Shown here: piece by piece, positions 11,730-59,955 of the stretch
Layout: every line of letters starts with the position of its first letter
Numbering within the stretch: position 1 is the stretch's first letter
Origin: Escherichia phage Mansfield
Reading direction: 5' to 3' (one strand)
Length of the DNA: 64,000 bases
Sequence record: MK903282.1
Notes under the pieces: model-generated
Databases searched by the model: none
The model's input: the letters and a program-made list of their open reading frames with translations, nothing else
What the model was told of the DNA's origin: nothing
Made by a program: the position numbers and the translations under genes

Positions 11730-14105
11730 ATGAAAATTCTTGGCATAAAACTCTGGGAGAAGACGCAACCAGAAGCCGAACCAGCGGAGATGCCGCCAGG
11801 CGACCCATTGGCACCGTTTGAACGCCTTGAAAGGCGCGGCAGCGGTCAACGCTGGGAAAAGACTGAAAGCAATCGACCGACCTTTAAAACGGTTGATGAC
11901 TTCCCTTTATATGAACCTGATATTAATGGCGACGGTGTTGCTATCATAAAAGGTCGTTCAGTCGATTCCGCAACAGTATCCAAAAAGGTTATGGATAATG
12001 CCTTGAAGAACATCAGTTCAGAAGGGCAGGTCAACCCATACACAGTCCCTATTCAACTTCAAAACTGGTATTTGTCACAGTCATTCATCGGCTATCAAGC
12101 TTGTGCCATCATCGCACAGCACTGGCTGGTGAACAAGGCGTGTTCCATGGTAGGCCGCGATGCGGTCCGTAAAGGCTGGGAAGTCAAATCCAGTTCTGAG
12201 TCAGAATTATCAGTGCAGGCCAGCGAACGCCTAAAGCAAATTGATAAAGAATTTAATATCAAAGAGCACTTAGTTGAAGCCGAACGATTCAAAAATATTT
12301 TTGGTATCCGCGTCATCATATTTGATGTGCGTAGTGATGACCCAGAATACTACAGCAAACCTTTTAACATTGATGGTGTGACAAAGGGGTCTTATAAGGG
12401 AATCATTCAGGTTGACCCTTATTGGATGATGCCATTTTTGACGTCTGAAAACACCGCCGACCCTGCATCACAGCACTTCTATGATCCAGAATACTGGGTG
12501 ATCAGTGGACAACGTTATCATCGAAGCCACCTGATCATTTTGCGCAACGATGAGCCAGCTGATATTCTCAAGCCGACTTATATTTACGGCGGCATTCCTT
12601 TGACTCAGCAGATTTATGAACGCATCTATGCCGCTGAGCGTACCGCTAACGAAGCGCCATTGCTGGCGATGTCCAAGCGTACAACCACGCTGCGGACCGA
12701 CGTTGACAAGGCGATTGCCAATGAGAGGTCTTTTGCTGAACGTCTGATGATGTGGATTAAGTACCGCGACAACTATGCAGTCAAAGTGCTTGGTCAAAAA
12801 GAAGAGATGGACCAGTTCGACATCAACTTGTCAGACTTCGATAGCATCATCATGAACCAGTACCAGCTGGTGGCTGCAATCGCAAAAGTTCCGTCAACCA
12901 AACTTCTTGGGACTTCGCCAAAAGGCTTTAACGCCACTGGTGAATTTGAGATGGTCAGCTATCACGAAGAGTTGGAAACTTGCCAGCAGCATGACCTGAC
13001 AAAAATTCTCGACCGCCATTACAAAATCCTTCTCAAATCAGAAGGGGTGGAAGTCGATGTTAAGGTCGCATGGGAACCAGTTGGCTCACTTACTGCTACT
13101 CAACTTGCAGAAATCAACGACAAGCGAGCTAACACTGGCAAAACTCTTATTGATGCTGGCGTCATTTCTCCTGATGAAGAGCGCGACCGCATCAAAGACG
13201 ACAAAAACAGCGGCTACAACCGTCTGCCGGAAGACGCAGCAGAAGAAACCCCAGGGATGTCTCCAGAGAATATGGCATTGCTTGGCAAGTCTGCTGGTGA
13301 AGTCCTGCAAGGCAAGGCCGATATTGAACAGGCGAAAGCTGATGTCGTTAAGATGGGCGGCCAGTTCTATAGCGAAACAGGTATTATGCCAGAAGGTGCC
13401 GCGCGTGGTGAGTTGGCGGAAAACCCTGACAAAGCGCCTGTCGAAATCAACATGGACGATACCGATGATGAATCAAGCCATCAGGTTGATGTCCTAACGC
13501 AGTTGAAAGAAGGTCTGGAGGGTATTGCTGATTATTACCTGAAAGAAGGTCAGGATGTGGATTTTGACCCTCAAAAAGATTCACGGTCGGTACAACCGTC
13601 TACCCTTCCAAGCGTCAAAGGTAATGTCGTTAACTTACGACACAACGTTGGAAAGATGGATGCAGCATCGTTACCTAAGATGAAGTTGCACGGGCTGATT
13701 CTTGGGATTGAGAATCCTCGCAACAGCATCCGTAGAGGGAACAGCCTTGACGGTGAATGGGCAGTCAAGATGCCGCATCACTACGGATTCATCAAGGGCA
13801 CTAAGGGCGCGGACGGCGATGAAGTCGACTGCTTTGTTGGTCCAAATATGAAGTCGCCGAAGGTCTTTATCGTTAACCAGAATGATAATTACTCTGGCGA
13901 GTTTGATGAACACAAGTGCATGCTTGGATTCGATTCAGCAGAAGAAGCGAAAGAAGCTTATCAAGCATCATTTGGTAACGGGTGGAACGGATTTGACTCA
14001 ATCCACGAATTGGATGTAAACTCGTTCAAGGAGTGGTTGAAGGGTGATTGCTCTCAAGCATACGGAGCACTCAATAATCCTACTAATTCACCGAAGCAAG
14101 GTTGA
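11730..14105 (+). CDS. portal protein with C-terminal pyrophosphatase-like extension
   Basis: Large protein directly after terminase with acidic C-terminal region; start trimmed to 11730 (GGTGG SD); C-terminal ~150 aa contain HYGFI...DGDEVDC (13779-13832). Confidence 0.7.
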   Translation: MKILGIKLWEKTQPEAEPAEMPPGDPLAPFERLERRGSGQRWEKTESNRPTFKTVDDFPLYEPDINGDGVAIIKGRSVDSATVSKKVMDNALKNISSEGQVNPYTVPIQLQNWYLSQSFIGYQACAIIAQHWLVNKACSMVGRDAVRKGWEVKSSSESELSVQASERLKQIDKEFNIKEHLVEAERFKNIFGIRVIIFDVRSDDPEYYSKPFNIDGVTKGSYKGIIQVDPYWMMPFLTSENTADPASQHFYDPEYWVISGQRYHRSHLIILRNDEPADILKPTYIYGGIPLTQQIYERIYAAERTANEAPLLAMSKRTTTLRTDVDKAIANERSFAERLMMWIKYRDNYAVKVLGQKEEMDQFDINLSDFDSIIMNQYQLVAAIAKVPSTKLLGTSPKGFNATGEFEMVSYHEELETCQQHDLTKILDRHYKILLKSEGVEVDVKVAWEPVGSLTATQLAEINDKRANTGKTLIDAGVISPDEERDRIKDDKNSGYNRLPEDAAEETPGMSPENMALLGKSAGEVLQGKADIEQAKADVVKMGGQFYSETGIMPEGAARGELAENPDKAPVEINMDDTDDESSHQVDVLTQLKEGLEGIADYYLKEGQDVDFDPQKDSRSVQPSTLPSVKGNVVNLRHNVGKMDAASLPKMKLHGLILGIENPRNSIRRGNSLDGEWAVKMPHHYGFIKGTKGADGDEVDCFVGPNMKSPKVFIVNQNDNYSGEFDEHKCMLGFDSAEEAKEAYQASFGNGWNGFDSIHELDVNSFKEWLKGDCSQAYGALNNPTNSPKQG

Positions 14106-41119: not shown

Positions 41120-41980
41120 TTAAAACTCTTCTGCGTCGGTCGGAGTTTCGTTGACAGGACCAGCAGCACCGCTTGCTTCTTCCTGCTTGCTGCGATCAAT
41201 GTTAACGTTGCCGCCAACTACGTCGTTGTGGAATGCTTTGGCGACTTCATACAGACCTTTGTCCTGCACCAGACCTTCCAGCTCAAACTTCAGGACGGAC
41301 CAGGTGTTGCCGTCTTTGGACTGAGACGCAGTACCCATGCGAACGATGTTCATAAAGGTCGGCGGAGTTTTCAGACCCTGCGGAGTCTGAACTTTCTTCT
41401 GTTGCAGCGCGGTCATCAGCATGCGAGACGGCTTGATCATGGAAGAAGTCAAAGACAGCATTGCACTACCAAATTCACCAGTTTCTTCGTTCAACAGAAT
41501 CACGAAGTGGTTGCGTGTATCAGCGTAGTAAGGTGATTTCTTCTCGTGCACTTTGCCGTTTTCATCCGGCACAAACACCTTACCGTTGATCTCAACAGCG
41601 CGGCCTGTCGCGACTTCTGCATCAACGTGCTCTTTGGTGAATTCACCTTTAAAGCCTTTATCGTCGGACTCGCGACCGCCCCAAAGGATGAAGGTGCGTT
41701 TGAATGCGCAAGGGATGATCTGCACGCCTTTCTTGCCGTCATACAACTCACCAGTAACGGTGTTGTACAGCATACCAGCTTTTGCGCCAGGCACGTGTTT
41801 TGGATCATCTTCGTCGACCATCGGAGACATCTTTTGCAGTACGACGATAAAAGGAATGGCATAAGCGTCGGCATCGGCACCTTCAAAACCAGCGCCAAAA
41901 TCGGTCATATCGACAAAATCAGCCATAGCGGACATCTGGGTGTTTTTCACTGCAACTTCGGTAGTTTCTTTCTTAGACAT
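41120..41980 (-). CDS. putative ssDNA-binding protein with acidic C-terminal tail
   Basis: C-terminus ...ETPTDAEEF (acidic, terminal Phe); position in replication module; fold not verified. Confidence 0.4.
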   Translation of the reverse strand: MSKKETTEVAVKNTQMSAMADFVDMTDFGAGFEGADADAYAIPFIVVLQKMSPMVDEDDPKHVPGAKAGMLYNTVTGELYDGKKGVQIIPCAFKRTFILWGGRESDDKGFKGEFTKEHVDAEVATGRAVEINGKVFVPDENGKVHEKKSPYYADTRNHFVILLNEETGEFGSAMLSLTSSMIKPSRMLMTALQQKKVQTPQGLKTPPTFMNIVRMGTASQSKDGNTWSVLKFELEGLVQDKGLYEVAKAFHNDVVGGNVNIDRSKQEEASGAAGPVNETPTDAEEF

Positions 41981-42039
41981 TTGATGTTTTCCTATAGTAT
42001 CAAGTTTCGTGGCAACCTGATTTCAAGATAAAGGTTAAA

Positions 42040-42597
42040 TTACTTTTTGCTTTTAGGCAAGGTTATTTTAGCTTCTTTATACTCAAAGACGCTAATATCT
42101 TCACTGACTGGATTACCCGCTTCCAGCTGTTCTTTTACGAATGACTTCAGTGTAGCAGAATGAACGCCTTGTTTCAATGTGGCTTCAACACCGTCTTCAC
42201 GCAGTGCGGCAACAATCTCTTGCGCTTGTTCGATTTCTTCGCGACCGAACTCAGCCGTGACGCTGGACTTGATCAAGCCGCCGTAACCGTTGTTGACAAG
42301 CCAATCGAATACCTTCAATTCATTTTCTTTCTTAATTGAAGCATTAACTTTTGACTCGACCTTGATCTTGGTCTTGTCTTCAAGCTTGATTTCGGACACG
42401 CCAAGCTCATCCATAACGCCAGGAAGCAGAACAGTTTTGATTTCACTGATGCGCTGCTTTTGCATATCAGCTTCATCTTCAAGCTCTGTCAAAGCTTCTT
42501 GGCGTTCTGCCAATTCCGATACTAAGCGCGCAAGGCGCTCTTGGATGCTCTCAGGAGCGACCTGCGGCAAATCATCTTCCCAATTAATATTGCTCAT
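42040..42597 (-). CDS. hypothetical coiled-coil protein (185 aa)
   Basis: N-terminal coiled coil then beta-rich region; function not assigned. Confidence 0.5.
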   Translation of the reverse strand: MSNINWEDDLPQVAPESIQERLARLVSELAERQEALTELEDEADMQKQRISEIKTVLLPGVMDELGVSEIKLEDKTKIKVESKVNASIKKENELKVFDWLVNNGYGGLIKSSVTAEFGREEIEQAQEIVAALREDGVEATLKQGVHSATLKSFVKEQLEAGNPVSEDISVFEYKEAKITLPKSKK

Positions 42598-44455: not shown

Positions 44456-44874
44456 GACAATTCCTCTAAATACTTGATGATGTGATGAATAGTTCCCTTC
44501 ACGATTATCTCACGTTGAACGTCTGCAATATTATAACGCTTTAATTCAATCGAAGGGTGGACTAAATAAAACATCTTCTCAGAATCGACTTTAAGCAAAA
44601 CAAATGATGGGTATTTCCAATCATTCCACGAAGAAAGAAAGCTGCACTGACCTTTCTCAAATGCATTTCTGAAAGGTGCAGTGGTGGCCCTTGCAGGCCA
44701 CGATTCAAAGAACTTCATTTCAAGCCAAAAGCCGCGCCCTTTCCGGTTGGTGCCGATTACATCCGGCACGCCATCACCAGTCATCGATTCGATTCGTTGA
44801 AGCTTCAATATTGATTCTGAATGCTTCTTCAAAGGTACGAATATGTATTTCTGTTCACGGTTATTTGTTGCCAT
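44452..44874 (-). CDS. VRR-NUC-like (PD-(D/E)xK) nuclease
   Basis: Start trimmed to 44874 (AGGTG SD); motif GVPDVIG ... FWLEMK; adjacent to SNF2 helicase. Confidence 0.55.
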   Translation of the reverse strand: MATNNREQKYIFVPLKKHSESILKLQRIESMTGDGVPDVIGTNRKGRGFWLEMKFFESWPARATTAPFRNAFEKGQCSFLSSWNDWKYPSFVLLKVDSEKMFYLVHPSIELKRYNIADVQREIIVKGTIHHIIKYLEELS

Positions 44875-47758
44875 CTGGATACACCTGTTTGATAACGTCG
44901 ACGATGAACATATCAATGCCTTCAAGCTTGCGCCCTTTCATCAGGAAGAATGCACCGTTCCCAACGTTCTCTGCAATGTATTTCCCGTACTTCTGGAACT
45001 TCTCTGGGCGAATCCTGAAACGCATTGGCGAATCGGTCGAATCGTCTTTGCACATAAGGTCAATGAACTGAGTTTCAAGCTTGTTTCCATACTGGTCAAA
45101 CTCTGCGTAGCGGCCATCGGACTGAAGACCTTTTTTAAGCTTGCCGTGCTTTGTATAAATGCCGCGCTCAAGACGTTTACGTATGCGTGTCGCTTCGTTC
45201 TCGTCAGCCAGCACTTTCTTGGTCAACTTGCCGATTACTATTGCACGCTCGTCATCGCCGACTTCCTTCATCTGGCGTATTGAAGCACCGGAAGTAACGC
45301 CAATCAGATAGGGGTCATTATACGCCCAGCCGAACTTTGTGTGCATTTCTGTAAGGTCGCCGTATTTGACTTCAGCATTGGCCAATGCGTCCTTTTGTTT
45401 TTGCGTTAAGGTTCCGGCTTCACGTGCTTCGATGTACTTCATCGCCTTCACCATTCCGTACCCTTTAGCGTTCATGATTCCGCCGATTAGCTTTCCGTTA
45501 GCGATGGTCCAGTTCATTGAAGAGTGGTCAGGGTCGATTGGCACATAATCCACGCCTTCCTTTGCAAGTTCACGTAATATCGCAATCGTCTGGTCTTCGT
45601 CCTTGGCAGCGCGTAAGCAAGCAGCGGCAAATTCCAACGGGTAGTGTCGTTTAAGCCACAAGGTCCAGTAGGTCACGACCGCGTATGATACGGAGTGTGA
45701 CTTGTTAAAGCCCCATGACCCGAACGTCGCCATCGCCTGCCAAAGCTTTCTTGCATCCGCTTCCGGTACGCCGTTATTTATTGCGCCTGCAACGAAGTCT
45801 TCGCCAAGCTTGTTAAAGTATTCCTCACCCTTACGACCTGACATCGCCTTACGCACAGCTGACGTTTTCGCCCAGTCGAATGAACCAATCTCTTTAACCA
45901 CGGCCATGATTTGCTCTTGGTAAAGAAACACGCCGTAAGTCTCTTTTAAGTATGGCTCAAGCTGCGGCACATCATACTCAATCGGCGCACGCCCTGCCGC
46001 GCGTTCGATGTATTTCTGGGCCATACCGGATGACAACGGGCCAGGTCGGCCAAGTGCTGTCAGGTTATCGATTTTGTTAAAGTTATCAACGTGCACAAAG
46101 TTGGTTACTGAGCGTACAGCATCGCCTTCAAACTGAAATATGCCTGACATCTTGTTTTCGTTAAGGATGTCAAGGACGCTTTGATCATTGAGCTTGATTC
46201 CGTACAGCGTTTCAGCATCTATCACGCCAGTATCAGAAATGATGCCGAGGGTGCGAAGGCCCAACGCATCAAGCTTCAAAAGGTTAAGATATTCGCTGTC
46301 AGGCTTATCAATTTGTGCAATCCCTTCCGCCGTTACCGTACAGTAATCAGAGATTGGGTCGTTACACACAATGATTCCTGCTGCGTGAACGCCAGTGTGG
46401 GAAGGGTGAATCTCAAGGTCACCCATGCATCGCGCGGCATCAGGATATTTAGCCACAAACTCTTGGCCCGTGGTCGTTGTTGCAAAGGTATCCTCCAGGC
46501 CGTGACCATAACGGGCGTCACCGGATGAGTATTCAAGCAATGCGTTTTTAATGTTGGCCGTTTCGTGATAGCCAATGTTAAACTTCTTACCAACCTGAGC
46601 CATTACTGAGTTGGCCTTAAGCGTGTTGATGTTGCCAAGCTTTGCAACGTTCATTTCGCCGTATTTTTCTTTAAGGTAATCAAACACCATATAGCGTTTG
46701 GTATCCTCAAAGTCAATATCAATATCAGGAAGGTCGGCGCGGCTTACGTCGATGAATCGGGCAAAAAGCAGCTTATACGGGATTGGATCAACTTCCGTGA
46801 TGCCGAGGCAATAACAAACCAATGAACCAGCCGATGAGCCGCGAGCGGGTCCAACGAGCATTTTTGTTTTTGCGAATCGTACAAGGTCCGCTACCACCAG
46901 AAAGTATGAGTCAAAATCTTTCAGCTGAATCTGGTGAATCTCTTCGTTGAATCGGTCCTCATATTCCTGAGTCCATTCTTTGATGTGACCTGCCTTAAGT
47001 CGGTACTCCATCCCCTCACGAGCAAGCTTTACCATGTCACCAGCAAGGTGGATAATCGGTGCCTTGCGCAGCTTCAGGTCAAGCCCCACAATTCCGTTTG
47101 CGATGTCAACTGCATTGGCCGTTGCTTGATTCAGCTCATCTTCTGTCAGGATTCCTTTAAGCTGTTTGCGCAAGTCTTCCGCGTCAACGATGCAGTGCGG
47201 CTTGACCGTGTCGCGAACTTCCCAAGCATAAGCAAAGTCAACGTGCTCAGGTGAAGGCATGTGGTTGTATCCGGTTAAAACCAGCGGCCTTCCGTTGCTG
47301 CGGTGAGCCAATGCCTGGCGCTTAGCCAAAAGGAACGATGATGGGTTGACGTCTATATAATCGTAGTCCTCTGGTCGCAGCAACTCCACGGCACCGCCAC
47401 AGAATTTAACGACGCCATCCAACGCCCCGAACTCTGCACGGGTCAGTCCGCCGCGCTGTGTTGCAAGTGTCGTAGCGTTGTAAAAGGATTTCAGGTCAAG
47501 CGCCAATATCCAAGCCTTCGGTTTGAATCCCTTTTTCGGGTCCGCATCAGGGTCGATGATTGGAATCTCCATGCCGAACATAGGCTTGATATCATTCTTC
47601 TGACATTCCTTTTCCCAGCGAACGTGACCCCATGTATTGTTATCAACTAATGCCGCGACTTCGCAGCCCAACTCTTTGAGCCGTGCTATAATTTCAGGAT
47701 GCCGTCCATATACTTCTTTGAACGTGTAACCGCTGCGAACTCTCAATTGTGGAAACAT
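44861..47758 (-). CDS. dnaE: DNA polymerase III alpha subunit-like replicase
   Basis: PHP-like N-terminus; signature GPARGSSAGSLVCYCLGITEVDP; 965 aa. Confidence 0.9.
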   Translation of the reverse strand: MFPQLRVRSGYTFKEVYGRHPEIIARLKELGCEVAALVDNNTWGHVRWEKECQKNDIKPMFGMEIPIIDPDADPKKGFKPKAWILALDLKSFYNATTLATQRGGLTRAEFGALDGVVKFCGGAVELLRPEDYDYIDVNPSSFLLAKRQALAHRSNGRPLVLTGYNHMPSPEHVDFAYAWEVRDTVKPHCIVDAEDLRKQLKGILTEDELNQATANAVDIANGIVGLDLKLRKAPIIHLAGDMVKLAREGMEYRLKAGHIKEWTQEYEDRFNEEIHQIQLKDFDSYFLVVADLVRFAKTKMLVGPARGSSAGSLVCYCLGITEVDPIPYKLLFARFIDVSRADLPDIDIDFEDTKRYMVFDYLKEKYGEMNVAKLGNINTLKANSVMAQVGKKFNIGYHETANIKNALLEYSSGDARYGHGLEDTFATTTTGQEFVAKYPDAARCMGDLEIHPSHTGVHAAGIIVCNDPISDYCTVTAEGIAQIDKPDSEYLNLLKLDALGLRTLGIISDTGVIDAETLYGIKLNDQSVLDILNENKMSGIFQFEGDAVRSVTNFVHVDNFNKIDNLTALGRPGPLSSGMAQKYIERAAGRAPIEYDVPQLEPYLKETYGVFLYQEQIMAVVKEIGSFDWAKTSAVRKAMSGRKGEEYFNKLGEDFVAGAINNGVPEADARKLWQAMATFGSWGFNKSHSVSYAVVTYWTLWLKRHYPLEFAAACLRAAKDEDQTIAILRELAKEGVDYVPIDPDHSSMNWTIANGKLIGGIMNAKGYGMVKAMKYIEAREAGTLTQKQKDALANAEVKYGDLTEMHTKFGWAYNDPYLIGVTSGASIRQMKEVGDDERAIVIGKLTKKVLADENEATRIRKRLERGIYTKHGKLKKGLQSDGRYAEFDQYGNKLETQFIDLMCKDDSTDSPMRFRIRPEKFQKYGKYIAENVGNGAFFLMKGRKLEGIDMFIVDVIKQVYPDGNK

Positions 47759-48300
47759 TATTTACTCCAGATGTCATATACGCCAATTTGTTGGCAGACT
47801 TTGTGCAGTAATATTACGTCGTCTAATGCACGGTGTTTCTGTTCATATTTTCCGAAATATAATTCATACAACTCTTGAAGCTTAACTCTTCGGCCAAAAA
47901 TAGGCAAGGTTTGCTCGACTGTACAAATGTTTATTTCTGGAAAATTAACATCACCAAGTGTAAGACCTTCGCGCTGTAATGCATAGTCAAGAATGTTTTT
48001 ATCAAACGCATGGTTGTGCGCGATAGTTGCATCCGTCTTCTTGAATATTTCTTTTAGCTGCGGAACGAAATGAATAAATGGTGGATTGCACTCAAGGTCT
48101 TCGTTGGTTAATCCGGTAATCTTCGTGATGATTTCTTCAATCACAATTTCAGGATTAATTATGAACTCGAAGGTTTCAAGAATCTCTTTGCCATCCGTCA
48201 ACAGGCCTGCAAATTCAATAGGGCGCGGCTGCATTCCAAGCGGTGCTTTCGGGTGCACGGTTAATCCGGTTGTTTCGAAGTCATAAGGGAGAAATAACAC
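47758..48300 (-). CDS. dnaQ: DnaQ-like 3'-5' exonuclease
   Basis: Exo motifs DFETTG, HNHAFD, HRALDDV; start overlaps polymerase stop. Confidence 0.85.
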   Translation of the reverse strand: MLFLPYDFETTGLTVHPKAPLGMQPRPIEFAGLLTDGKEILETFEFIINPEIVIEEIITKITGLTNEDLECNPPFIHFVPQLKEIFKKTDATIAHNHAFDKNILDYALQREGLTLGDVNFPEINICTVEQTLPIFGRRVKLQELYELYFGKYEQKHRALDDVILLHKVCQQIGVYDIWSK

Positions 48301-48354
48301 ATTGGCCTCCTACAAAAAGGCCGCCCATTAGGACGGCCACAGATTCAAGATTCG

Positions 48355-48906
48355 TTATGCAGTGTACGGAGTACCGTCTTGATTCAACCGCACGATGAAC
48401 TTAAGGTCGACACCAATGATTTCACGAGTATCAAAGATCACATAGTTGTAACGACGCTGACCAGCAATATTTGGGTTGGTGTGAGAGTCAGTTACGACTT
48501 CCTGCGCAACCTGAATGCCTTCTTCTTTAAAGAACTTACGCCATTCAGCAAGTTCAGCGGCAGTCACATGCATACCAAGATGGCTGACCTGATTATCGTG
48601 CGCATCAAGCATGTCGATGTTTTCGTTGATCCAGTTGCAACCCATTGTGTAGTCAAGGATTTCAAGCTCAAGAGGCTTACCAGCGCCGCCATCGGTGCCG
48701 TTGCCAGCCTGATAGTTGAATCGCAAGTCAGCTTCGTTGGTGCAATCGTCGCGACGACCTTTAAATTCGTCATTTTCAAATACGCGACCAGTAGCAACAA
48801 CATGATCATGGAACCATTCTGTCAGGCCGATTTTAGCCAGAAAATCCTGTGCACGCTTAGCATCTGGAATTGACAGGGCGATTTGTTCAATTTTAAAGTG
48901 TGGCAT
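48355..48906 (-). CDS. hypothetical protein, possibly VOC/glyoxalase-like
   Basis: 183 aa; assignment by eye only. Confidence 0.4.
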   Translation of the reverse strand: MPHFKIEQIALSIPDAKRAQDFLAKIGLTEWFHDHVVATGRVFENDEFKGRRDDCTNEADLRFNYQAGNGTDGGAGKPLELEILDYTMGCNWINENIDMLDAHDNQVSHLGMHVTAAELAEWRKFFKEEGIQVAQEVVTDSHTNPNIAGQRRYNYVIFDTREIIGVDLKFIVRLNQDGTPYTA

Positions 48907-48926
48907 TTTGTTTCCTTAATTAAATA

Positions 48927-49142
48927 TTATTGATTAATTACTGTGTTGTCTTCGTCCTGTTGCTTTTCAGGAGCGGGTGTGACAATTTCAAATTTAGGTT
49001 TGGGTAATTCACCTTTAGCGCCTGGGACTTCAACGACAATCTTTTTGTCAGACTCAACAGGATTTGGAACTTCAAATTTGGTTGTGTATCCTAATACAAC
49101 AAGAAGCACTAAACCGATTACCGCTACCCAGGCTTTGTTCAT
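48927..49142 (-). CDS. small secreted or membrane-anchored protein (71 aa)
   Basis: N-terminal hydrophobic segment MNKAWVAVIGLVLLVVLGY. Confidence 0.4.
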   Translation of the reverse strand: MNKAWVAVIGLVLLVVLGYTTKFEVPNPVESDKKIVVEVPGAKGELPKPKFEIVTPAPEKQQDEDNTVINQ

Positions 49143-49145
49143 GAT

Positions 49146-49829
49146 TTATTTCCCAAATGGAATATCAGTACCAGACATAAAGCGCCATGCGCCCGTAATT
49201 AAGATATGGCGAATGAAGTCAGCAATTACTTGCGGCTCAGTCTCCAATCCATTCATCAACGCCTTTTTCTGGTATTCAGCAGCATACTCAGGAGTCCAGC
49301 CGCGAGTCGCACAAACAGCATCTTCAATCTGTTTAGACATGCCAGTGCCGCGCAACTTGTTAGGACTAATAGAGAATACCGTAATCCCGTATTTAGGCGT
49401 AAGTTCGTGGGCCATCTGCTTACTGATCATAAGTGCAGCGGCCTTGGAAGCATTATAACACAAGCTGGACGTCATAGGAATATGCGCAGCGTTGGAAACG
49501 ATATTGATCACAAAACCTTTGTTGTCGATAAGACTTTTCAGTGCAGCCTGAGTCGTGTTAACGAAAGAGAAGGCGTTGGTATGCATAACGCGGTTAAATT
49601 CTTCGTAGTTGACATCTTCAAACCAGTTGTTGGAGTTGACGCCAGCACAGTTGATCAAGCCTTCCACGTCGTATTGAGAGAGAAGCTCTTTCATTTGTTT
49701 CGCGTTACGGATGTCATAACCGTTGTCCAAATCAATACCGACGACTTCATGACCGTAAGCACCAAGGGTGTCAAAAATTGATTTACCAAGACCGGAATTG
49801 CAGCCAGTTACAACAATTACTTTTTTCAT
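49146..49829 (-). CDS. short-chain dehydrogenase/reductase (SDR)
   Basis: Cofactor motif TGCNSGLG and catalytic YNASK. Confidence 0.8.
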   Translation of the reverse strand: MKKVIVVTGCNSGLGKSIFDTLGAYGHEVVGIDLDNGYDIRNAKQMKELLSQYDVEGLINCAGVNSNNWFEDVNYEEFNRVMHTNAFSFVNTTQAALKSLIDNKGFVINIVSNAAHIPMTSSLCYNASKAAALMISKQMAHELTPKYGITVFSISPNKLRGTGMSKQIEDAVCATRGWTPEYAAEYQKKALMNGLETEPQVIADFIRHILITGAWRFMSGTDIPFGK

Positions 49830-49895
49830 TTATTTATCCTTTTTTGGACTTCGTTTCGATGAGATAAATATAACTCATCGAAACGCACAAGTAAA

Positions 49896-50768
49896 CTATT
49901 TATTGAAATTAATATTATGGGTGTTGACGAGACGTTCACACATGGCGCTGTAAACACCATCATCGTGTATAGAGTCTTCGTGCTTCAGGCCGCTAATTGC
50001 GAAGCGTGTAAGCTTGACAATCTTAAGCTCGAAAAGGTGCCACATGTGATAGTCTTCCGGCGTTTTCAACGTCACGCCATTAGGGAAAAGTACCTGCATA
50101 ACCTGACCTACCATCACAGCGTTATCGCCATATACGGCGTTGCGTTCACGGAAAGTCGCGGCCATCGCATCAAGAATATCGGCGGCGGTTGCCGGAGATT
50201 GTTCAATTTCCACAGCCTTATTCTCTTCTTGCCCCGTTGCGCTTGGATCAATTGCTAATTGTTGCACCACTTCACCTGCCTTGCAAAGATTAAATGTAAA
50301 GGCGATTTTATTTTGTGCCATGGAATTATAATCCATAGCTTCCTTACGCATTGCCGCGAGAATGTCTTGTCTGTCATCAAATACGTTGATGATTCGATAA
50401 TCGCCATGCCGCAACACATACTGCAACCACTTTGATTTGATGGTCATTGACGGACGTTTGTCACCATCGTCTCTCATCTTGATGATAAATTCATCGAAAG
50501 GAAAAACATTGTCAAGACGTTCAAAGGTTGCTTGTCTGTATTTTTTTGGTCTTGCCGTCCAATATTCAACCGACTCACCGCGAAGAGTTGCAGACTCTAC
50601 TGATGATGCGATGTCAGGATAGAACTGATCATAACCAATGCCGCTGTGATAATCATCATAGTCTGACAACGGGCCTGCCACCTTGATGCGGTCTAAGCGC
50701 CAACGGTCATCAAACAGCGTTCCGTCAAGGTCGAATGCGTTTAAGATTTGGTGACTTTTAATGCTCAT
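49896..50768 (-). CDS. HAD-superfamily phosphatase fused to a C-terminal domain of unknown function
   Basis: Motif I FDLDGTL, later VFDDRQD; C-terminal ~140 aa unassigned. Confidence 0.6.
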   Translation of the reverse strand: MSIKSHQILNAFDLDGTLFDDRWRLDRIKVAGPLSDYDDYHSGIGYDQFYPDIASSVESATLRGESVEYWTARPKKYRQATFERLDNVFPFDEFIIKMRDDGDKRPSMTIKSKWLQYVLRHGDYRIINVFDDRQDILAAMRKEAMDYNSMAQNKIAFTFNLCKAGEVVQQLAIDPSATGQEENKAVEIEQSPATAADILDAMAATFRERNAVYGDNAVMVGQVMQVLFPNGVTLKTPEDYHMWHLFELKIVKLTRFAISGLKHEDSIHDDGVYSAMCERLVNTHNINFNK

Positions 50769-51568
50769 CCTTTTGACACTCCATCTTTAGCCACTGGATT
50801 GTTGGTGATTGGCATTGCATTCCAAAACTGGATGCGTAATTCTTCTTGCTGTGCAGTTGTATCCATCCAATCACGATACCAAGGGCAATGGGCTTTGCCA
50901 TGACGAGGAAACGCGCATTTACCCATACCGATGCATTGCGGCTGTAGTAAAGGATTAGCCCACGGGTGCACCTTGAGGACTTCCGCAACCATTGCGCGAA
51001 ATACTTCTTGATACTCGCCTTGTGTGCGCGTGCACAAGCGGTTTGACGCCATCTGCTGCAGCGTGCGCAAGTTGAACTTTGCCATGATATGCGTTTGCAT
51101 ATTAGAAGGCAAAACGGCACGTGCATCTTGAATCTCTGCGCCAGCCGCGCGAAGTTCTTGGTATAGGGCGTCAATGGTCGCCATTGCATCATCCCACTTC
51201 TCTGCCAGTGCAGCAGCCTTCTCGTCATGGCGAGTCCAGCCCTTTGGATCATCCTCTGGGTAAGTAAATTTGGCAGGACGAATCGCATCAAAAGCAGAAG
51301 ATTCCTGAGCGCGGCTTGTGCGTTCTTGATATGCGCCTGTGCGTGTGCGTACCATCTGATGAGTCATATTCTTTGATACATCAGTAATGTCAAAGATATA
51401 GTCCACAAAGTCAAAAGGTGACTTGATTGTATCAAGCATGTAGCGCCAGTGCTCTTGCTTCTCTGATTCCGTCATTTCAGAGACAGGCTTGCCAGTCATG
51501 CGCGTGTTCTTTGTTTCCAGCAAAAGGTCAAGTGCATCTTGGGTGTATCGAATTAATTCAACTTTCAT
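50765..51568 (-). CDS. thyX: flavin-dependent thymidylate synthase (ThyX)-like, altered signature
   Basis: ThyX-type blocks ...FDFVDYIFDITDVSKNMTHQMVRTR...ERTSR and RAVLPSNMQTHIMAKFNLRTLQQMASNR; canonical RHR reads RTR. Confidence 0.7.
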   Translation of the reverse strand: MKVELIRYTQDALDLLLETKNTRMTGKPVSEMTESEKQEHWRYMLDTIKSPFDFVDYIFDITDVSKNMTHQMVRTRTGAYQERTSRAQESSAFDAIRPAKFTYPEDDPKGWTRHDEKAAALAEKWDDAMATIDALYQELRAAGAEIQDARAVLPSNMQTHIMAKFNLRTLQQMASNRLCTRTQGEYQEVFRAMVAEVLKVHPWANPLLQPQCIGMGKCAFPRHGKAHCPWYRDWMDTTAQQEELRIQFWNAMPITNNPVAKDGVSKG

Positions 51569-51581
51569 TTTAATTATCCTA

Positions 51582-52028
51582 TTAACGGTAATTCACTAAT
51601 TGTTGATCACCAGAGAAGGTGCAATGATAAACGAATTGTGCGTTGTAAAGCAATTGAAAACTTTTCTTTGGTTCATTATTAGCACTCATCGATGTGAATA
51701 CTTCTGCACCGGAACGGTTTTCACCAATCAGATTGATAAAGCCGCCAGTTGAACGAGGTTGAACGAAAGTGAAACGTTGCATCCACGGAGTACGGTTGGC
51801 ACCTTTCCCTGTGAATCCCTGAATCTGAATATTCAGACCTTCTTGCTCGTTAACACCGATGTAAGTGGTAATCGTTGCACCAGTTGTCGCTGCGGTCTTA
51901 CCGTCCATCGCTTCACAATCGTAAACAGCGATTGAATCGGAAGTACGGACGGCAGCTTCAGTCGCTTCCATATACATGGTGCCGAGAATAGCAGTTGCGG
52001 CAAGCGCGATTCCAGTGATTCGTTTCAT
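51582..52028 (-). CDS. secreted protein of unknown function (148 aa)
   Basis: Signal peptide MKRITGIALAATAILGTMYMEATEA. Confidence 0.5.
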   Translation of the reverse strand: MKRITGIALAATAILGTMYMEATEAAVRTSDSIAVYDCEAMDGKTAATTGATITTYIGVNEQEGLNIQIQGFTGKGANRTPWMQRFTFVQPRSTGGFINLIGENRSGAEVFTSMSANNEPKKSFQLLYNAQFVYHCTFSGDQQLVNYR

Positions 52029-52093
52029 TTTCGTTTCCTCTATGAGTTCTGCTTCAATGATTAAAGTATACGCCCATTGAAGCAGAAAGCAAA

Positions 52094-53089
52094 TTATTTA
52101 TTAGCAATATAAGCAAATTTTTGATAGTTATTTGCTTTGATGAGTTTTTCAACTTCAGCAAGGTCATGAGCGACGTCATCAAGCAAAATGTTGCGCCAGG
52201 TAGCAAATCGACCGACACTAAACACATTCAAATCCATAGTCAGCTGCAGGAGTAGGGCGTGTCGCAAGTCCTTCGGAATGTCGACAATCTTGCCATATTT
52301 CTGGTCGACCTTTTCAACTTCTTCAAGAGCAATGTCACTCCATGAGAGGCCAAAGGCTGTCAACACTTCGTCGACTTCTGCGCGCAACTTCATGTCACGG
52401 TAACGAGTGATGCCGCCAGCGGCTTCAACTGCAGCTGCACTTACGCTGACCAAAGGAATAGTTTCAATGATAAGCGTGTCACCAGTGATTGATGCGCGGT
52501 AAGTTCTGACGGAGTAGTCAGGGAAGTAAATCGTCTGATACAACTCGCACTTACGTTTAATCTTAAAGCGATAAACACGAATATTTGCCTTATCAAATGA
52601 GAAATCAAGCTTTTGATCAATCCCAGCCAGCTTCATCATGACTGGCAGCGGCGACGTGTTGATGATTGGCGTCTCGCTATAGCCGCAAAGAGTATCAACC
52701 GGAGTATTAAAGAATATGCGGTCACCCAGTTTGTCGACAAGCTGATCATAAAAGTCATCAGGTGCAATATAACGCGTTGCAGTTTTAAGCTTCATAATTG
52801 AACGGCTGCCAAACTGATTGGTGACCTTCATGGAATACATATTGGCAAGGTTGATTGGGCAATGGTCGTGGTAGTAGTTGCCGCGAAAATACACAGCCTT
52901 GTCAACTGTCACGGCCTTGAAAGGGATTCCGGTAATACGGCTTACTTCTTCGCCGCGAAAGCGTAGAAGCGCCTTGTGCTGTTGCGCTCGTTCCCCTGCT
53001 TCGTACACAATAGAGTTCGGGAAGTGACACGCTGTGATAAGTCCTGCCAGTCCGCCGCCGATAATCATTACAGGTTGTTTCATGTTCAT
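52094..53089 (-). CDS. FAD/NAD(P)-binding Rossmann-fold protein
   Basis: N-terminal VMIIGGGLAGL dinucleotide-binding motif; C-terminal GRFATW resembles amine-oxidase/UGM-type flavoenzymes. Confidence 0.6.
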   Translation of the reverse strand: MNMKQPVMIIGGGLAGLITACHFPNSIVYEAGERAQQHKALLRFRGEEVSRITGIPFKAVTVDKAVYFRGNYYHDHCPINLANMYSMKVTNQFGSRSIMKLKTATRYIAPDDFYDQLVDKLGDRIFFNTPVDTLCGYSETPIINTSPLPVMMKLAGIDQKLDFSFDKANIRVYRFKIKRKCELYQTIYFPDYSVRTYRASITGDTLIIETIPLVSVSAAAVEAAGGITRYRDMKLRAEVDEVLTAFGLSWSDIALEEVEKVDQKYGKIVDIPKDLRHALLLQLTMDLNVFSVGRFATWRNILLDDVAHDLAEVEKLIKANNYQKFAYIANK

Positions 53090-53167
53090 TTGTCCTTTGT
53101 GGGTGATATGAGAAGTATAATAGCTAAATTATTTTACAGCAACAAGTCATTTTATTTAGTACAGATG

Positions 53168-53195
53168 AAAAAAAGACCCACAACAAGTGTGGGTC
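53168..53195 (-). terminator. rho-independent terminator (minus strand)
   Basis: GACCCACA / TGTGGGTC 8-bp stem, 5-nt loop, followed on the minus strand by T7. Confidence 0.7.
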
Positions 53196-53222
53196 AATTA
53201 CCGCTGCATAACCGTCCTAAGG

Positions 53223-54068
53223 TTATTCCGCTTGATCACCGTCTTCGGCATCTTCGTTGGATTCAACATCGACAAACTCGATGTGACCCATCTCTTCCAG
53301 CTTGCTCAGGTAGGAGCGAACTGAAGCGCCAAACAGTTGATCTTTAACTTTTTCGCCCAGCTCATCGATAGACTGTGCCACGCCAACTTCGCCTTCTTTG
53401 ATCGCCGCCAGAACGCGTCCACGGGTGGAATGCTCTTGCGGCTGACTCAGGCCATTGCCAGTGTAGATGAAGTGAGTAGCTTTTGCACGACGCTGACCAT
53501 TGGCCTTTTTGGCAGCCTTACGTTCTGCGATGGCTTTGCGACGTTCTTCAGCTTCTTGCTTACGCTGTTCTTTCTGCTGTTCTGCAGCTTCTTTCGCCGC
53601 AATCTTAGCAGCTTCACGCTCTGCCTTGCGTTTCGCTTTGGCTTCTTCTTTGGCCTTCTCTTTTTCGGCCTTCGCTGCAGCACGGGCTTGATCACGCTCT
53701 GCTTTCTTAGCAGCAGCTTGTTCAGCTTTCAGGCGCTTGGCTTCTTCTTTAGCCTTTGCCTTTTCGATTTCTTTCGCTGCTTTAGCGGCTTCACGCTCTG
53801 CTTTCTTAGCAGCAGCCTTTTCTGCACGCTCTTTGGCCTTCTTGGCTGCTTCTTCAGCACGCTTCTGAGCCTTCTCATCAGCAGCCTGCTTGCGTTTCAG
53901 GGCAGCTTCTTCACGCTTGGCTTGTTTTTCCTGCTCACGCTTCTGGCGTTTTTCTTCGGCTTCTTTCTTTTTAGCCAGACGTTTTTCTTCAGCCACGCGA
54001 CGACGTTCTGCTGCAGCTGCTTGTTTTTCTTCTTTAGATAATACTTTGATTGCTTCGGCCATGTTCAC
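53223..54068 (-). CDS. Lys/Ala/Glu-rich low-complexity protein with globular acidic C-terminus
   Basis: About 200 aa of KAE-type charged helix repeats then ~80 aa non-repetitive acidic tail; the antisense ORF 53337..54041 is a composition artefact. Confidence 0.6.
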   Translation of the reverse strand: MNMAEAIKVLSKEEKQAAAAERRRVAEEKRLAKKKEAEEKRQKREQEKQAKREEAALKRKQAADEKAQKRAEEAAKKAKERAEKAAAKKAEREAAKAAKEIEKAKAKEEAKRLKAEQAAAKKAERDQARAAAKAEKEKAKEEAKAKRKAEREAAKIAAKEAAEQQKEQRKQEAEERRKAIAERKAAKKANGQRRAKATHFIYTGNGLSQPQEHSTRGRVLAAIKEGEVGVAQSIDELGEKVKDQLFGASVRSYLSKLEEMGHIEFVDVESNEDAEDGDQAE

Positions 54069-55892: not shown

Positions 55893-56975
55893 ATGGCTAG
55901 TTTAAGAGAAGAAGCAAAAATAATCGAAGAGTTTTTGACAGAACTCCAAAGAGGCATTCCAGAAGATGAACGCGTCATGACCGTGTTTGCGCCTGAAGCA
56001 ACGGTGCAGACCGACGAGCGCGGCAAAAAGATTAACAGCAGCTTCTGGCCTAAGCCTTGGAAGCTTGGCAAGCCGCTGATGCAACATCAGAACGGTTACG
56101 CCTGCATAAGTTCAATGCGTAAGTCTCCCAACCCAAAGACAGGCGAGATGCGATACTGGCGCACGGAATCGGCTTTCGGTCATGGCATGGCGATGATGGT
56201 CGACGACATCGGTCACGGTAAAGGGTCCAAAGGCGATTTAGATTTAGAGTTCTTTTTCGAGAGTCTGAAGCCAACCGTCATTGTTGAGACTTCACCGAAC
56301 AACCACCAGCTGTGGTATTTCTTTAAAGACCCGATTGACCATCTTATCCAGTTCAAAGCATTCCTTGGGTCTTTCGTAAACATGGTACTCAAGAAGGGCG
56401 GCGACAACACGATTAAAGACGTGACGCGCGTGGGCCGTGTTCCTGGTTGCATCAACAACAAGCGTGTGACTCACGACGGCCCTTACAAATATGTCGATGA
56501 GAACGGCGACCCGTTCCGCTGCCGACTTGTCCATGCAGACTATTCTTTGCGATACACAATCGAAGAGATTTGCCAAGCCTTCGGTTTCCACGTCGTTATG
56601 CCGCAAAAGCGTGAAATTCAAATCGACGTTGACGAATACAAATATGATGCTGTTTGGTATAAAATAGCCCAGCAAATCCTTGCTCGCAATAAGATGGGTG
56701 AAGGGTCCGATGGCGATGTTGTTGAAAACATGTCAGGTAAATGCCGCATCATCTGCCCTTGGGGTGAAGAGCACACCAACGGCGACCCATATGGCGCTTA
56801 CTTTCGCGGCCCAATCCCTGGCGCTGAACATGAATTCGTTTTCGGTTGCGCTCACGACTGTCACCGGAAAGGTGAAGGTAAGAAAGGCTGGACAGCTTTT
56901 GTTGAAGCAGTAGTCATGCCTTATATTGAGAATCAACTTGATATGATAAATCGTCGCGCAGGTGGCATAAAATAG
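55893..56975 (+). CDS. primase-polymerase (AEP/prim-pol-like) with C-terminal zinc ribbon
   Basis: AEP-like motifs MVDDIG, SPNNHQLWYF, RVPGCINNK; Cys/His cluster CPWGEEH...CAHDCH. Confidence 0.6.
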   Translation: MASLREEAKIIEEFLTELQRGIPEDERVMTVFAPEATVQTDERGKKINSSFWPKPWKLGKPLMQHQNGYACISSMRKSPNPKTGEMRYWRTESAFGHGMAMMVDDIGHGKGSKGDLDLEFFFESLKPTVIVETSPNNHQLWYFFKDPIDHLIQFKAFLGSFVNMVLKKGGDNTIKDVTRVGRVPGCINNKRVTHDGPYKYVDENGDPFRCRLVHADYSLRYTIEEICQAFGFHVVMPQKREIQIDVDEYKYDAVWYKIAQQILARNKMGEGSDGDVVENMSGKCRIICPWGEEHTNGDPYGAYFRGPIPGAEHEFVFGCAHDCHRKGEGKKGWTAFVEAVVMPYIENQLDMINRRAGGIK

Positions 56976-58284: not shown

Positions 58285-59955
58285 ATGTCAATTGAACATG
58301 ACAATCTTCCAGAGGATACAGGTGATGAATTTGGTGCAATCTTTGACGAAATTCAAGACGCTGGTGTTTCAGAAGAAATGCAAGCGGCAGAGCAGCAAGG
58401 CACCAGAGCTAAAATCAGCCTACAGCACAAGGCTGTTGAGAAAGATGCAGAGCGCATGGAATGCTACGGTGAAGAAGACTTGGTTGAAAGGGCACGTTTG
58501 CTCGCCTCACTTCAGGTAATCAAGTTCCCTCACTACAAACCGACGAAAGATGATTTTGTTCTTCAGGCGGACCGGACGAGTGACATGAACCGTTATGCGG
58601 TTTTCGACGCGTTGTTTGATAAGGGAAGTGGCGTTGTTCCATTCCCTCACAAAGATACTTTTCGTGGACGCTTAGTCGACCATCGCGGCGAAACTTTCAC
58701 CGACCGGACGTTGGAAGTTACAGAGATAGTTGCCGCTGTCGATGCAGCAGGACTGTCCAACCCAAACTCACGTCAGGTCGCTCAATCCTATAAGGAATGG
58801 GCCATGCGTTATCAGCGCGACGACCTGATGGACTTCTTCTACAAGAAGCTGCCTGAATGGGACGGTACTGCGCGCATTGAGAAATACCTTATCGAGCTAT
58901 TCCGACCGTTCGATACAGAGTTAAACCGACAAATCGGTGTGTATTTTTGGCTATCGCTCTATAACCGCCTGACCAACCCTGGCTGTCAAGCGCCAATCTC
59001 CATCGCGCTCATCGGCGGCCAGAACGCAGGGAAGAGTTATTTTAGCAAGCTGCTTTGCGAAGCTATTATGAACGACCGCCACGCAACACCGATTCCGTTG
59101 AACTTGGCCGCGCAGAACTTCAACCCGTTCTTGCGAGCTATTACGGGTCGCTCAATTATCGCGAACGTTGGCGAGATGACAGGCTTTAAAAAGGCTGACA
59201 TCGAAAACATGAAAGCATTCCTGACTAAGACGGAAGATGACCTGGACTTCAAATTTGAGGACACGCAGGTTAAACCACGCCAGTGGATTGCTATCATGGA
59301 CGGCAACGAATACGCAGGCATGCAGCGTGACGACACGGGCAACCGTCGTGTATACCCTATATTTGTTGGCCAACTCGCTGACAAGGACGGGCAACCGAAC
59401 TGGTCTAAAGACTTCCAAGCTGACCTTTCCACTTTGAAAGAAGACGTTTGGCAGCTGATGGCTGAGTGCGCTGCTTGGATGGAGAAGCACGGCGAAGCAG
59501 GTTACAATGCCTTTGTTGGTGAAACGTCTCGCATGCTTACTGAGTTCAGTAAGAACGAAATGGAACGCGCTCGCGGCGTTATCCGTGATGAGATGGTCGA
59601 CAACGACCTTGTTGAAGTCGTCATCACCGCGCCTTATGACCGACATCACAGCGGACGCTGGCACATCACCAGTGGTGCAATCGCTATGGGATTCAGAGCT
59701 AAGTGCGGCAAGTCGCCTTTCTCACGTACCCTTGCGCCGCACATGTCGAAGCTTGGATTTGAGCCTGCGACCTATCGCAACCAGCGCGGTTACTTTACGC
59801 CGCTGATTAAGAATGAAGCAGGGGAATACATTTCTGACCTGATGACTATTTTGGCGTATCTTATCCGCGACGAATCTGACCCTGAAGATATTGAATTCTT
59901 GAAGAAGGTTATTGAGCGCAAACGTTCTTTAGGAAGAGATAAGGATGAATTCTGA
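58285..59955 (+). CDS. SF3-type replicative helicase (primase C-terminal/VirE-like)
   Basis: Walker A LIGGQNAGKS; size and arrangement typical of phage primase-helicase C-terminal half; AGGAGG SD. Confidence 0.65.
   Translation: MSIEHDNLPEDTGDEFGAIFDEIQDAGVSEEMQAAEQQGTRAKISLQHKAVEKDAERMECYGEEDLVERARLLASLQVIKFPHYKPTKDDFVLQADRTSDMNRYAVFDALFDKGSGVVPFPHKDTFRGRLVDHRGETFTDRTLEVTEIVAAVDAAGLSNPNSRQVAQSYKEWAMRYQRDDLMDFFYKKLPEWDGTARIEKYLIELFRPFDTELNRQIGVYFWLSLYNRLTNPGCQAPISIALIGGQNAGKSYFSKLLCEAIMNDRHATPIPLNLAAQNFNPFLRAITGRSIIANVGEMTGFKKADIENMKAFLTKTEDDLDFKFEDTQVKPRQWIAIMDGNEYAGMQRDDTGNRRVYPIFVGQLADKDGQPNWSKDFQADLSTLKEDVWQLMAECAAWMEKHGEAGYNAFVGETSRMLTEFSKNEMERARGVIRDEMVDNDLVEVVITAPYDRHHSGRWHITSGAIAMGFRAKCGKSPFSRTLAPHMSKLGFEPATYRNQRGYFTPLIKNEAGEYISDLMTILAYLIRDESDPEDIEFLKKVIERKRSLGRDKDEF

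Follow-up and report, generated by a model that had tools for sequence, protein, structure and literature searches.

A conserved phage gene module pairing a divergent ThyX with a flavoprotein in Escherichia phage Mansfield, and its possible part in thymidine hypermodification

In a 64,000-nucleotide stretch of Escherichia phage Mansfield (MK903282.1; the whole stretch is hereafter the window), which belongs to the lytic E. coli myoviruses of the genus Wifcevirus, we find a conserved five-enzyme module on the minus strand between positions 48355 and 53089. Comparison across phages reveals that a flavoprotein, a variant of the flavin-dependent thymidylate synthase ThyX and a HAD-DUF6378 fusion protein constitute the core of this module, and that a short-chain dehydrogenase/reductase (SDR) and a VOC-fold protein constitute an optional pair that is gained and lost as a unit. 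We see an even chance that the module supplies the phage's DNA with a non-canonical thymidine, probably derived from a sugar, and such a modification would shield the DNA from restriction. The module enzymes and their domains, in the order of transcription and with lengths in amino acids (aa), are:

52094..53089, minus strand: 331-aa FAD-binding flavoprotein, first module gene; PHROG 4828 (function unknown)
50765..51568, minus strand: 267-aa divergent ThyX; Thy1 (PF02511), E=1.9e-30; 4-bp overlap of its stop codon with the start of the next gene
49896..50768, minus strand: 290-aa HAD-DUF6378 fusion; HAD_PNKP, E=1.8e-7; phrog_4889
about 50319-50768, minus strand: HAD domain of the fusion, capless, PNKP 3'-phosphatase type; N-terminal part, FDLDGT motif (DxDxT)
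about 49929-50186, minus strand: DUF6378 domain of the fusion, four-helix; C-terminal part
49146..49829, minus strand: 227-aa classical SDR; PF00106 (adh_short), E=1.2e-31; phrog_3142; TGxxxGxG and YxxxK motifs
48355..48906, minus strand: 183-aa putative VOC-fold protein (glyoxalase/dioxygenase superfamily), last module gene; weak Glyoxalase_4 match

The original prediction for this DNA, made from its letters alone, had placed six minus-strand genes between these positions. The genes are real, but there are seven of them, the other two encoding the small proteins described at the end.

The module is conserved across distant phages

Within the genus, 28 sequenced phages match the region 48300-53200 at 92-95% nucleotide identity. 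All of them are Wifcevirus with E. coli or Shigella hosts, and they include WFC, WFH, ECML-117, FEC19 and the BASEL phages Bas98-101. Identity of this level kept across 28 genomes argues that the cluster genes are not chance open reading frames (ORFs).

To look beyond the genus, 80 viral loci were collected with an alignment of the flavoprotein, and their ORFs were called and searched with the window proteins; the 58 loci holding both the flavoprotein and the exonuclease genes were taken as informative. A ThyX-like gene stands beside the flavoprotein gene in every one of them (58/58), and the HAD domain and DUF6378 are each present in 57/58. SDR and VOC occur together in 38/58 loci and are both absent from 18/58, with only two loci (2/58) carrying one without the other. 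The order of the genes is constant, running from flavoprotein through ThyX-like, HAD, DUF6378, SDR, VOC, exonuclease, DnaE and VRR-NUC-like to SNF2, and the exonuclease and DnaE genes come directly after the module in every locus surveyed. Some phages encode HAD and DUF6378 as a fusion, and in many loci they are separate, adjoining ORFs. We had considered SDR and VOC to be Wifcevirus-specific additions; the 80-locus survey disposes of this idea, as the pair is widespread and it is Pbunavirus that represents a lineage without it.

In fact, the Pbunaviruses (14-1, F8 and their relatives), which are only distantly related to Wifcevirus, carry the same three-part core in the same place upstream of the exonuclease and DnaE genes but lack the SDR and VOC of Wifcevirus. 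Their proteins are 40% (flavoprotein), 49% (ThyX variant) and 27% (HAD-DUF6378) identical to those of the window. Between F8 and 14-1 themselves, whose thymidine adducts differ, HAD-DUF6378 is the most diverged module enzyme, with 79% identity against 94-97% for the others, and much of this divergence may fall within the interdomain linker.

Public data contain about 1900 relatives of the flavoprotein. Among sequenced isolates, full-length records number 358 for the flavoprotein and 356 for the ThyX variant, and their distributions match, with 292 from Pseudomonas, 26 from Escherichia and 9 from Serratia phages for either protein. In Rhizobium phage RHph_TM2_3B, a phage of another family with a 206 kb genome, the trio lies within 7 kb and beside dUTPase and ribonucleotide reductase genes; its ThyX motif reads RNR, and HAD and DUF6378 are again fused.

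The ThyX variant keeps the dUMP site and has lost the signature histidines

The ThyX variant belongs clearly to the Thy1 family, scoring 106.5 bits against PF02511 (Pfam cut-off 24.8), and falls short of the NCBIfam thyX equivalog TIGR02170 (82.1 bits against a cut-off of 87.9). Public annotations uniformly name the gene thymidylate synthase. A ThyX-like enzyme with an altered signature had been predicted, and this is borne out: the motif in the window is RTRTGAYQERTSR in place of the expected RHRxxSxxxxSxR. Across the 38 clade members the RHR histidine (equivalent to H79) is T, S or N and never H, giving RTR, RSR or RNR.

The residues of the variant were read against Thermotoga maritima ThyX via PDB alignments. 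This reveals that the residues binding deoxyuridine monophosphate (dUMP), namely Q71, R74, R76, R86, R150 and R177, are invariant in the clade and equivalent to T. maritima Q75, R78, R80, R90, R147 and R174. Judging from this conservation, the variant probably still binds a dUMP-type nucleotide and FAD. The GHxxxxEH segment, in contrast to canonical ThyX, is replaced by TIKSPFDF in the window and TIPSSWEF in others, with the overall pattern TI(K/P)S(P/S)(F/W)(D/E)F. This segment holds T. maritima His53, which we take to be the histidine stacking on folate and NADPH, and with its loss the group that the variant adds at C5 may be other than a simple methyl.

Both the RHR motif and the folate-stacking region (H.S.LEH) are present in ThyX of Bacillus phage Mgbh1 and of Clostridium phage CPQ4; such canonical ThyX of Gram-positive phages are less than 30% identical to the variant and have no flavoprotein alongside. 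The variant thus shares with canonical ThyX the Thy1 domain and the dUMP-binding Gln and Arg equivalents and departs from it in its RHR motif, His53 region and equivalog score. It differs further in being always paired with a second flavoprotein and, in the large-genome clade, in an extra C-terminal cysteine region. Four cysteines of this region (C179, C212, C218 and C228) are conserved in the large-genome clade, Wifcevirus and Pbunavirus included, and absent in the 40-57 kb clade; the set may form a metal or Fe-S site foreign to canonical ThyX. We note a similar RLCT...C..G.C pattern in the "ThyX-like" protein of Gordonia phage Zany.

The flavoprotein, HAD-DUF6378, SDR and VOC proteins

The flavoprotein carries the sequence GGGLAG...E30. 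Searches against Pfam and NCBIfam give no family match, and PHROG 4828 is its sole match. Its fold is of the UDP-galactopyranose mutase (UGM)/protoporphyrinogen oxidase (PPOX) type, with a cell-wall sugar mutase as the best structural match and amine and amino-acid oxidases among the fold neighbours. Against the PDB, both single-sequence and profile searches match only the Rossmann N-terminus. Sequence kinship to true UGM was rejected, since hhalign of the family profile against E. coli UGM (Glf) returned a probability of 3.5%, and "UGM-like" is therefore valid at the level of the fold only. Compared with Glf and protoporphyrinogen oxidase, the phage protein is shorter, and its invariant Arg and Lys residues form a set of their own; it shows the fold of Glf yet lacks membership in the GLF-type sequence family of Pfam.

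A HAD phosphatase fused to an unidentified domain had been predicted. The HAD part is confirmed by its FDLDGT motif and by a score of 31.8 bits against PF25109 (cut-off 27.6), and the C-terminal part can now be named DUF6378. The AlphaFold2 model of the fusion has a mean confidence score (pLDDT) of 88.3, and its top Foldseek matches are Pnkp1 and the phosphatase domain of T4 Pnkp (both with E about 3e-5) and class B/C acid phosphatases. Every one of the Foldseek matches lies on the HAD domain and none on DUF6378. The phage HAD domain thus shares the capless DxDxT fold with T4 polynucleotide kinase/phosphatase, the T4/PNKP phosphatase being the top match by both Foldseek and Pfam, but it comes without the kinase domain and is instead fused or adjacent to DUF6378.

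The DUF6378 assignment draws on the homologues, 30/32 of which match the family; the C-terminal domain of the window copy itself has no Pfam match. The DUF6378 profile finds only weak POU-domain matches in the PDB, which we take as chance. DUF6378 may resemble the Nmad1/DUF1599 and MazG-like folds. A MazG-like identity was tried by hhalign against the phage's own MazG-like protein, with a negative result, and a literature search on DUF6378 and DUF1599 gave nothing useful.

Some loci are arranged differently around this gene. On contig L054, a DUF3310 protein (11969-12241, E=1.4e-15) follows the ThyX-like gene in the usual HAD-DUF6378 slot. In Vibrio phage VA-RY-3 (locus L003, 8561-9981) the slot is taken by a 222-aa protein whose weak DUF3310 match stays below threshold (E=0.0037), and a sulfotransferase-fold protein comes next. 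By eye, DUF3310 and DUF6378 share the pattern K..R...H/K.D..D..Y and may be related. Eight loci (L015, L017, L018, L020, L021, L026, L028 and L031) have an extra HAD-like ORF between the flavoprotein and ThyX-like genes, besides HAD-DUF6378.

The SDR, as predicted, is a sound assignment, with the motifs reading TGCNSGLG and YNASK. Its best PDB relatives are FabG enzymes (about 1e-12), which marks it as a generic classical SDR. The VOC fold had been put forward as a possibility, and the window copy by itself is weak (Glyoxalase_4 E=0.0055, 17.4 bits against a cut-off of 27); the assignment gains from its homologues, 20/32 of which match the family (best E 9.3e-6). Residues Q8, E82 and H109 and an SHTNP motif are invariant in this protein, and the family profile finds no relatives in the PDB.

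Modified thymidine and restriction resistance in phages with the module

Two phages carrying the core have chemically characterized DNA. In Pbunavirus F8 and 14-1, about a quarter of thymidine is replaced by derivatives of 362 and 390 Da (Yee et al. 2025, bioRxiv, PMC12191111), described as a tetrose sugar-alcohol derivative and a circularised aldopentose derivative. The two phages make different adducts, 362 Da in F8 and 390 Da in 14-1, and restriction digests of F8 DNA point to a TG context of the modification (PMC12191111). The same study assigned no biosynthetic genes and noted that such phages lack the known modification genes and would escape searches based on them. According to a 2026 preprint, native Nanopore runs on Pbunavirus genomes fail, and amplification restores sequencing. 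In the window, 26.6% of thymines precede G, which fits the "about a quarter" modified in Pbunavirus. Modified thymidine has been shown chemically for F8 and 14-1 only. In the literature, no paper was found that ties ThyX or the flavoprotein to Pbunavirus thymidine modification.

Wifceviruses, for their part, resist every tested restriction-modification system except EcoP1_I, with no known protection mechanism (Humolli et al., PMC11990801). The window contains 16 EcoRI, 5 EcoRV, 5 EcoKI and 81 EcoP1 sites; since EcoRI, EcoRV and EcoKI sites are present, the resistance is not due to a lack of sites. Published papers on Wifcevirus isolates report neither restriction digests nor nucleoside analyses. 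As a possible indirect sign of modified DNA, the anti-END inhibitor of Pbunavirus (14-1 gp87/gp88) was looked for in the window, and no homologue was found, an absence that is uninformative because F8 and PB-1 are also unprotected. The annotation of a complete Wifcevirus genome shows no further metabolic enzyme except a ligase and the MazG-like protein. Pfam scans of 20 further non-structural window ORFs revealed no ThyA, kinase, glycosyltransferase or dioxygenase; these scans cover 29 window ORFs in all, with small ORFs and structural genes left out.

A possible route to a sugar-derived thymidine

Both the ThyX and the UGM families use a flavin-N5 iminium, ThyX with methylene and UGM with the anomeric carbon of a sugar. 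A family that passes a flavin-iminium carbon to dUMP C5, a partner with a sugar-iminium fold and relatives whose thymine bears a sugar-derived substituent form a suggestive coincidence. In the proposed pathway, the ThyX variant would put a non-methyl group at dUMP C5 or create a reactive exocyclic-methylene intermediate. The UGM/PPOX-fold flavoprotein would handle the sugar or polyol partner, or else the oxidation state of the adduct, and the capless PNKP-type HAD would strip a phosphate from a sugar-phosphate adduct or a nucleotide. In phages carrying both, SDR and VOC would act on the side chain as tailoring enzymes. Because the modified Pbunaviruses lack this pair, it can provide at most tailoring steps, and its presence in Wifcevirus suggests that the Wifcevirus adduct should differ from the Pbunavirus adducts.

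A more specific version, which we consider improbable, has the ThyX variant and the UGM-fold flavoprotein use flavin to couple an aldose, free or phosphorylated, to dUMP C5, such that C1 of the sugar becomes the apparent "methyl" carbon. The PNKP-type HAD would then take the phosphate off the sugar, with SDR and VOC further modifying the chain in Wifcevirus. By mass arithmetic, deoxyuridine (dU) plus a pentose, reduced and minus water, corresponds to 5-(1-deoxypentitol-1-yl)-dU at 362 Da, and dU plus a hexose minus water to a C-glycoside at 390 Da. The same masses result for an ether or O-glycoside on 5-hydroxymethyl-dU, so the arithmetic does not discriminate a C-C linkage from an ether on 5-hydroxymethyl-dU.

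Overall, the guess in the original prediction of a pathway for a modified nucleotide or base is the best-supported reading, given the conserved five-gene module, the hypermodified thymidine of Pbunavirus and the resistance of Wifcevirus to restriction-modification systems. It does not extend to the two small exported proteins that had been counted with the enzymes, which are Wifcevirus-only insertions outside the module.

Several points weigh against a thymidine-modifying role. The link between genes and modification is purely correlative, and the only phages in which modification is proven have neither SDR nor VOC. With its dUMP-binding apparatus fully intact, the ThyX variant might be nothing more than a thymidylate synthase. 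The TG context in Pbunavirus implies a step acting on DNA and hence an enzyme reading the DNA sequence, and no protein of the module can readily be recognised as a DNA-binding enzyme. EcoRI cuts the DNA of F8, yet Wifceviruses are resistant to it in vivo; the two cases therefore cannot be equated outright, and the resistance of Wifcevirus could also stem from anti-restriction proteins. Finally, most loci share the exonuclease-DnaE-SNF2 block, and much of the synteny could reflect common descent instead of functional coupling.

Alternative explanations

The main rival, which we regard as rather unlikely, is ordinary nucleotide supply: the ThyX variant would be the thymidylate synthase of the phage, kept together with the other genes only through a vertically inherited replication block. 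HAD-DUF6378 would then act as a nucleotidase, sanitise the nucleotide pool or remove 3'-phosphates from DNA ends, and the flavoprotein, SDR and VOC would be auxiliary redox enzymes supplying, for example, reductant or one-carbon units. The clear Thy1 domain with all dUMP-contacting Arg and Gln residues kept is what this explanation expects, and the uniform public annotation agrees with it, as do the dUTPase and ribonucleotide reductase genes adjoining the trio in the Rhizobium jumbo phage, the closeness of the HAD domain to PNKP phosphatases and class B/C nucleotidases and the block common to most loci. However, the folate-stacking and signature histidines are gone clade-wide from the variant while canonical phage ThyX retains them, and the variant scores below the equivalog cut-off. 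Moreover, none of the known routes to thymidylate calls for a second flavoprotein of the UGM/PPOX fold, an SDR or a VOC protein. Nucleotide supply also leaves the 1:1 pairing of the flavoprotein with this ThyX clade alone without explanation, and the Pbunavirus modification and Wifcevirus restriction resistance without candidate genes.

A folate-independent synthesis of thymidylate appears very unlikely. Here, the flavoprotein would make formaldehyde or another one-carbon donor that the histidine-less ThyX uses directly, the product would be dTMP and the phage would be freed from the host folate pool. ThyX is reported to accept free formaldehyde as a methylene donor, the variant lacks the folate-stacking histidine and amine and amino-acid oxidases are among the fold neighbours of the flavoprotein. 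Against this, no substrate can be named, SDR, VOC, HAD and DUF6378 are left without a role and the modified Pbunavirus DNA is not explained.

Slimmest of all is the chance that the flavoprotein, SDR, VOC and HAD are auxiliary metabolic genes remodelling a host sugar or cell-envelope metabolite beside a coincidental ThyX neighbour: the PHROGs category of the SDR ('moron, auxiliary metabolic gene'), the sugar mutase as best structural match and the two exported proteins inside the Wifcevirus cluster fit, but the flavoprotein is tied to the ThyX variant in all informative loci, within replication modules of strictly lytic phages, and has no sequence-level kinship to true UGM, and the exported proteins are not conserved beyond Wifcevirus.

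Comparison with known hypermodification systems

If the module does modify thymidine, the outcome would resemble that in phages M6, ViI, SP10 and PhiW-14 (Lee et al. 2018; 2021, PMC8989533), in which some thymidines carry bulky C5 substituents that counter restriction. Both rely on phage enzyme clusters, and both would involve C5 chemistry of the exocyclic-methylene type, which is proposed here. The enzymes differ. M6/ViI-type pathways employ a ThyA-family dUMP hydroxymethylase and a 5-hydroxymethyl-dU (5-hmdU) DNA kinase, followed by group transfer at the level of DNA (PMC8989533). Neither the ThyA-family hydroxymethylase nor the P-loop 5-hmdU DNA kinase was found among the 29 window ORFs scanned, and the thymidylate-synthase homologue here is the flavin-dependent ThyX and not ThyA. 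In fact, no module enzyme belongs to the known thymidine-hypermodification toolkit.

A sugar on a DNA pyrimidine as an anti-restriction device, as proposed here, has parallels in the glucosyl-hydroxymethylcytosine of T4, the arabinosyl-5-hydroxycytosine of RB69 and base J. The RB69 pathway begins with a flavin-binding thymidylate-synthase homologue, which is a ThyA homologue acting on cytosine (PMC13326640). In contrast to these glycosyltransferase systems, no glycosyltransferase or nucleotide-sugar synthesis gene was recognised in the scanned window ORFs or annotations.

Phage DNA hypermodification as such was already known, and the modification of Pbunavirus is published. New with respect to the searchable literature are the module and its breadth, the two states in which it occurs, the divergent signature of its ThyX and the proposed link to modification. 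The Pbunaviruses are among the most used therapeutic Pseudomonas phages, and their DNA hypermodification is a recent find without assigned genes; Wifceviruses have by now entered the BASEL reference collection, and no known mechanism accounts for their resistance to restriction. Our analysis offers a short, specific list of candidate genes for both. It predicts that many uncultured phages are modified too, given the number of flavoprotein relatives and the constant presence of the ThyX-like gene, and that phages with and without the SDR-VOC pair carry different adducts. If the module does make the adduct, hypermodified thymidine would here arise without any of the known enzymes, and ThyX chemistry may extend past methyl transfer. 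The module would also provide a sequence marker for sensitivity to restriction and END nucleases and for failure of Nanopore sequencing.

Cluster boundaries, small proteins and neighbouring genes

The remaining features of the cluster and its surroundings are:

53165..53195, minus strand: terminator-like hairpin, upstream boundary; stem GACCCACA-CTTGT-TGTGGGTC then T7; 8-bp stem with 5 GC pairs
51582..52028, minus strand: 148-aa protein with an N-terminal signal-like segment; no family match
48927..49142, minus strand: 71-aa protein with an N-terminal transmembrane segment; no family match
48304..48338, minus strand: terminator-like hairpin, downstream boundary; stem GGCCGTCC-TAAT-GGGCGGCC then T5; 8-bp stem with 7 GC pairs
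47758-48300, minus strand: DEDDh 3'-5' exonuclease, context gene; RNase_T, E=1.6e-21
44861-47758, minus strand: DnaE-type polymerase, context gene

The upstream hairpin (53195-53175; folding free energy -13.9 kcal/mol, z -3.2 against shuffled sequences) separates the cluster from the gene of a Lys-rich protein, and the downstream hairpin (48338-48319; -17.4 kcal/mol, z -2.15) separates the VOC gene from the exonuclease gene. With strong hairpins exactly at both ends, the cluster looks like a transcription unit of its own within the replication block. The earlier placement of the cluster within a replication operon is thus right as to the gene block, but the hairpins set the cluster apart in it. 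Over the whole region, counts of terminator-like structures and promoters show no excess over shuffled controls, and as terminator-like structures are at the shuffled level, only the two bracketing hairpins stand out. The region upstream of the cluster was searched for a sigma-70 promoter, and none was convincing.

The 148-aa and 71-aa proteins had been predicted as one secreted and one small anchored protein, and both do bear hydrophobic N-terminal segments. Searches of family libraries related them to nothing. The 148-aa protein is confined to 3 Wifcevirus loci among the 58 informative loci, and the 71-aa protein was detected in Wifcevirus loci only. Both probably lie outside the pathway as Wifcevirus-specific insertions and may be morons acting, for example, in superinfection exclusion. 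Bas98 has one further small ORF at the site of these insertions.

Directly upstream of the cluster, at 53223-54068 on the minus strand, lies the gene of the Lys-rich protein. This 281-aa protein has long Lys/Ala/Glu-rich repeats (AKKAEREAAKAAKE...) and a conserved C-terminal domain that looks winged-helix-like by eye, its sole match being PHROG 4765 (function unknown). Its C-terminal part also adjoins the flavoprotein gene in several distant loci. Elsewhere in the window, two adjacent minus-strand genes at 41120-42597 match Pam3_Gp34 (E=4e-86) and DUF7307/Pam3 gp33-like proteins (E=3e-37) and are located between the spanin genes and the SNF2 helicase gene. Two separate plus-strand genes at 55893-56975 and 58285-59955, divergent from the strand of the cluster, are both named "DNA primase" in the annotation of the closely related Bas98.

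As to short words in the whole window, GATC is strongly depleted, with 113 occurrences where a first-order Markov model expects 259; XbaI sites are depleted too (2 against 9), and CAGCAG (67 against 34) and AAGCTT (50 against 24) are enriched.

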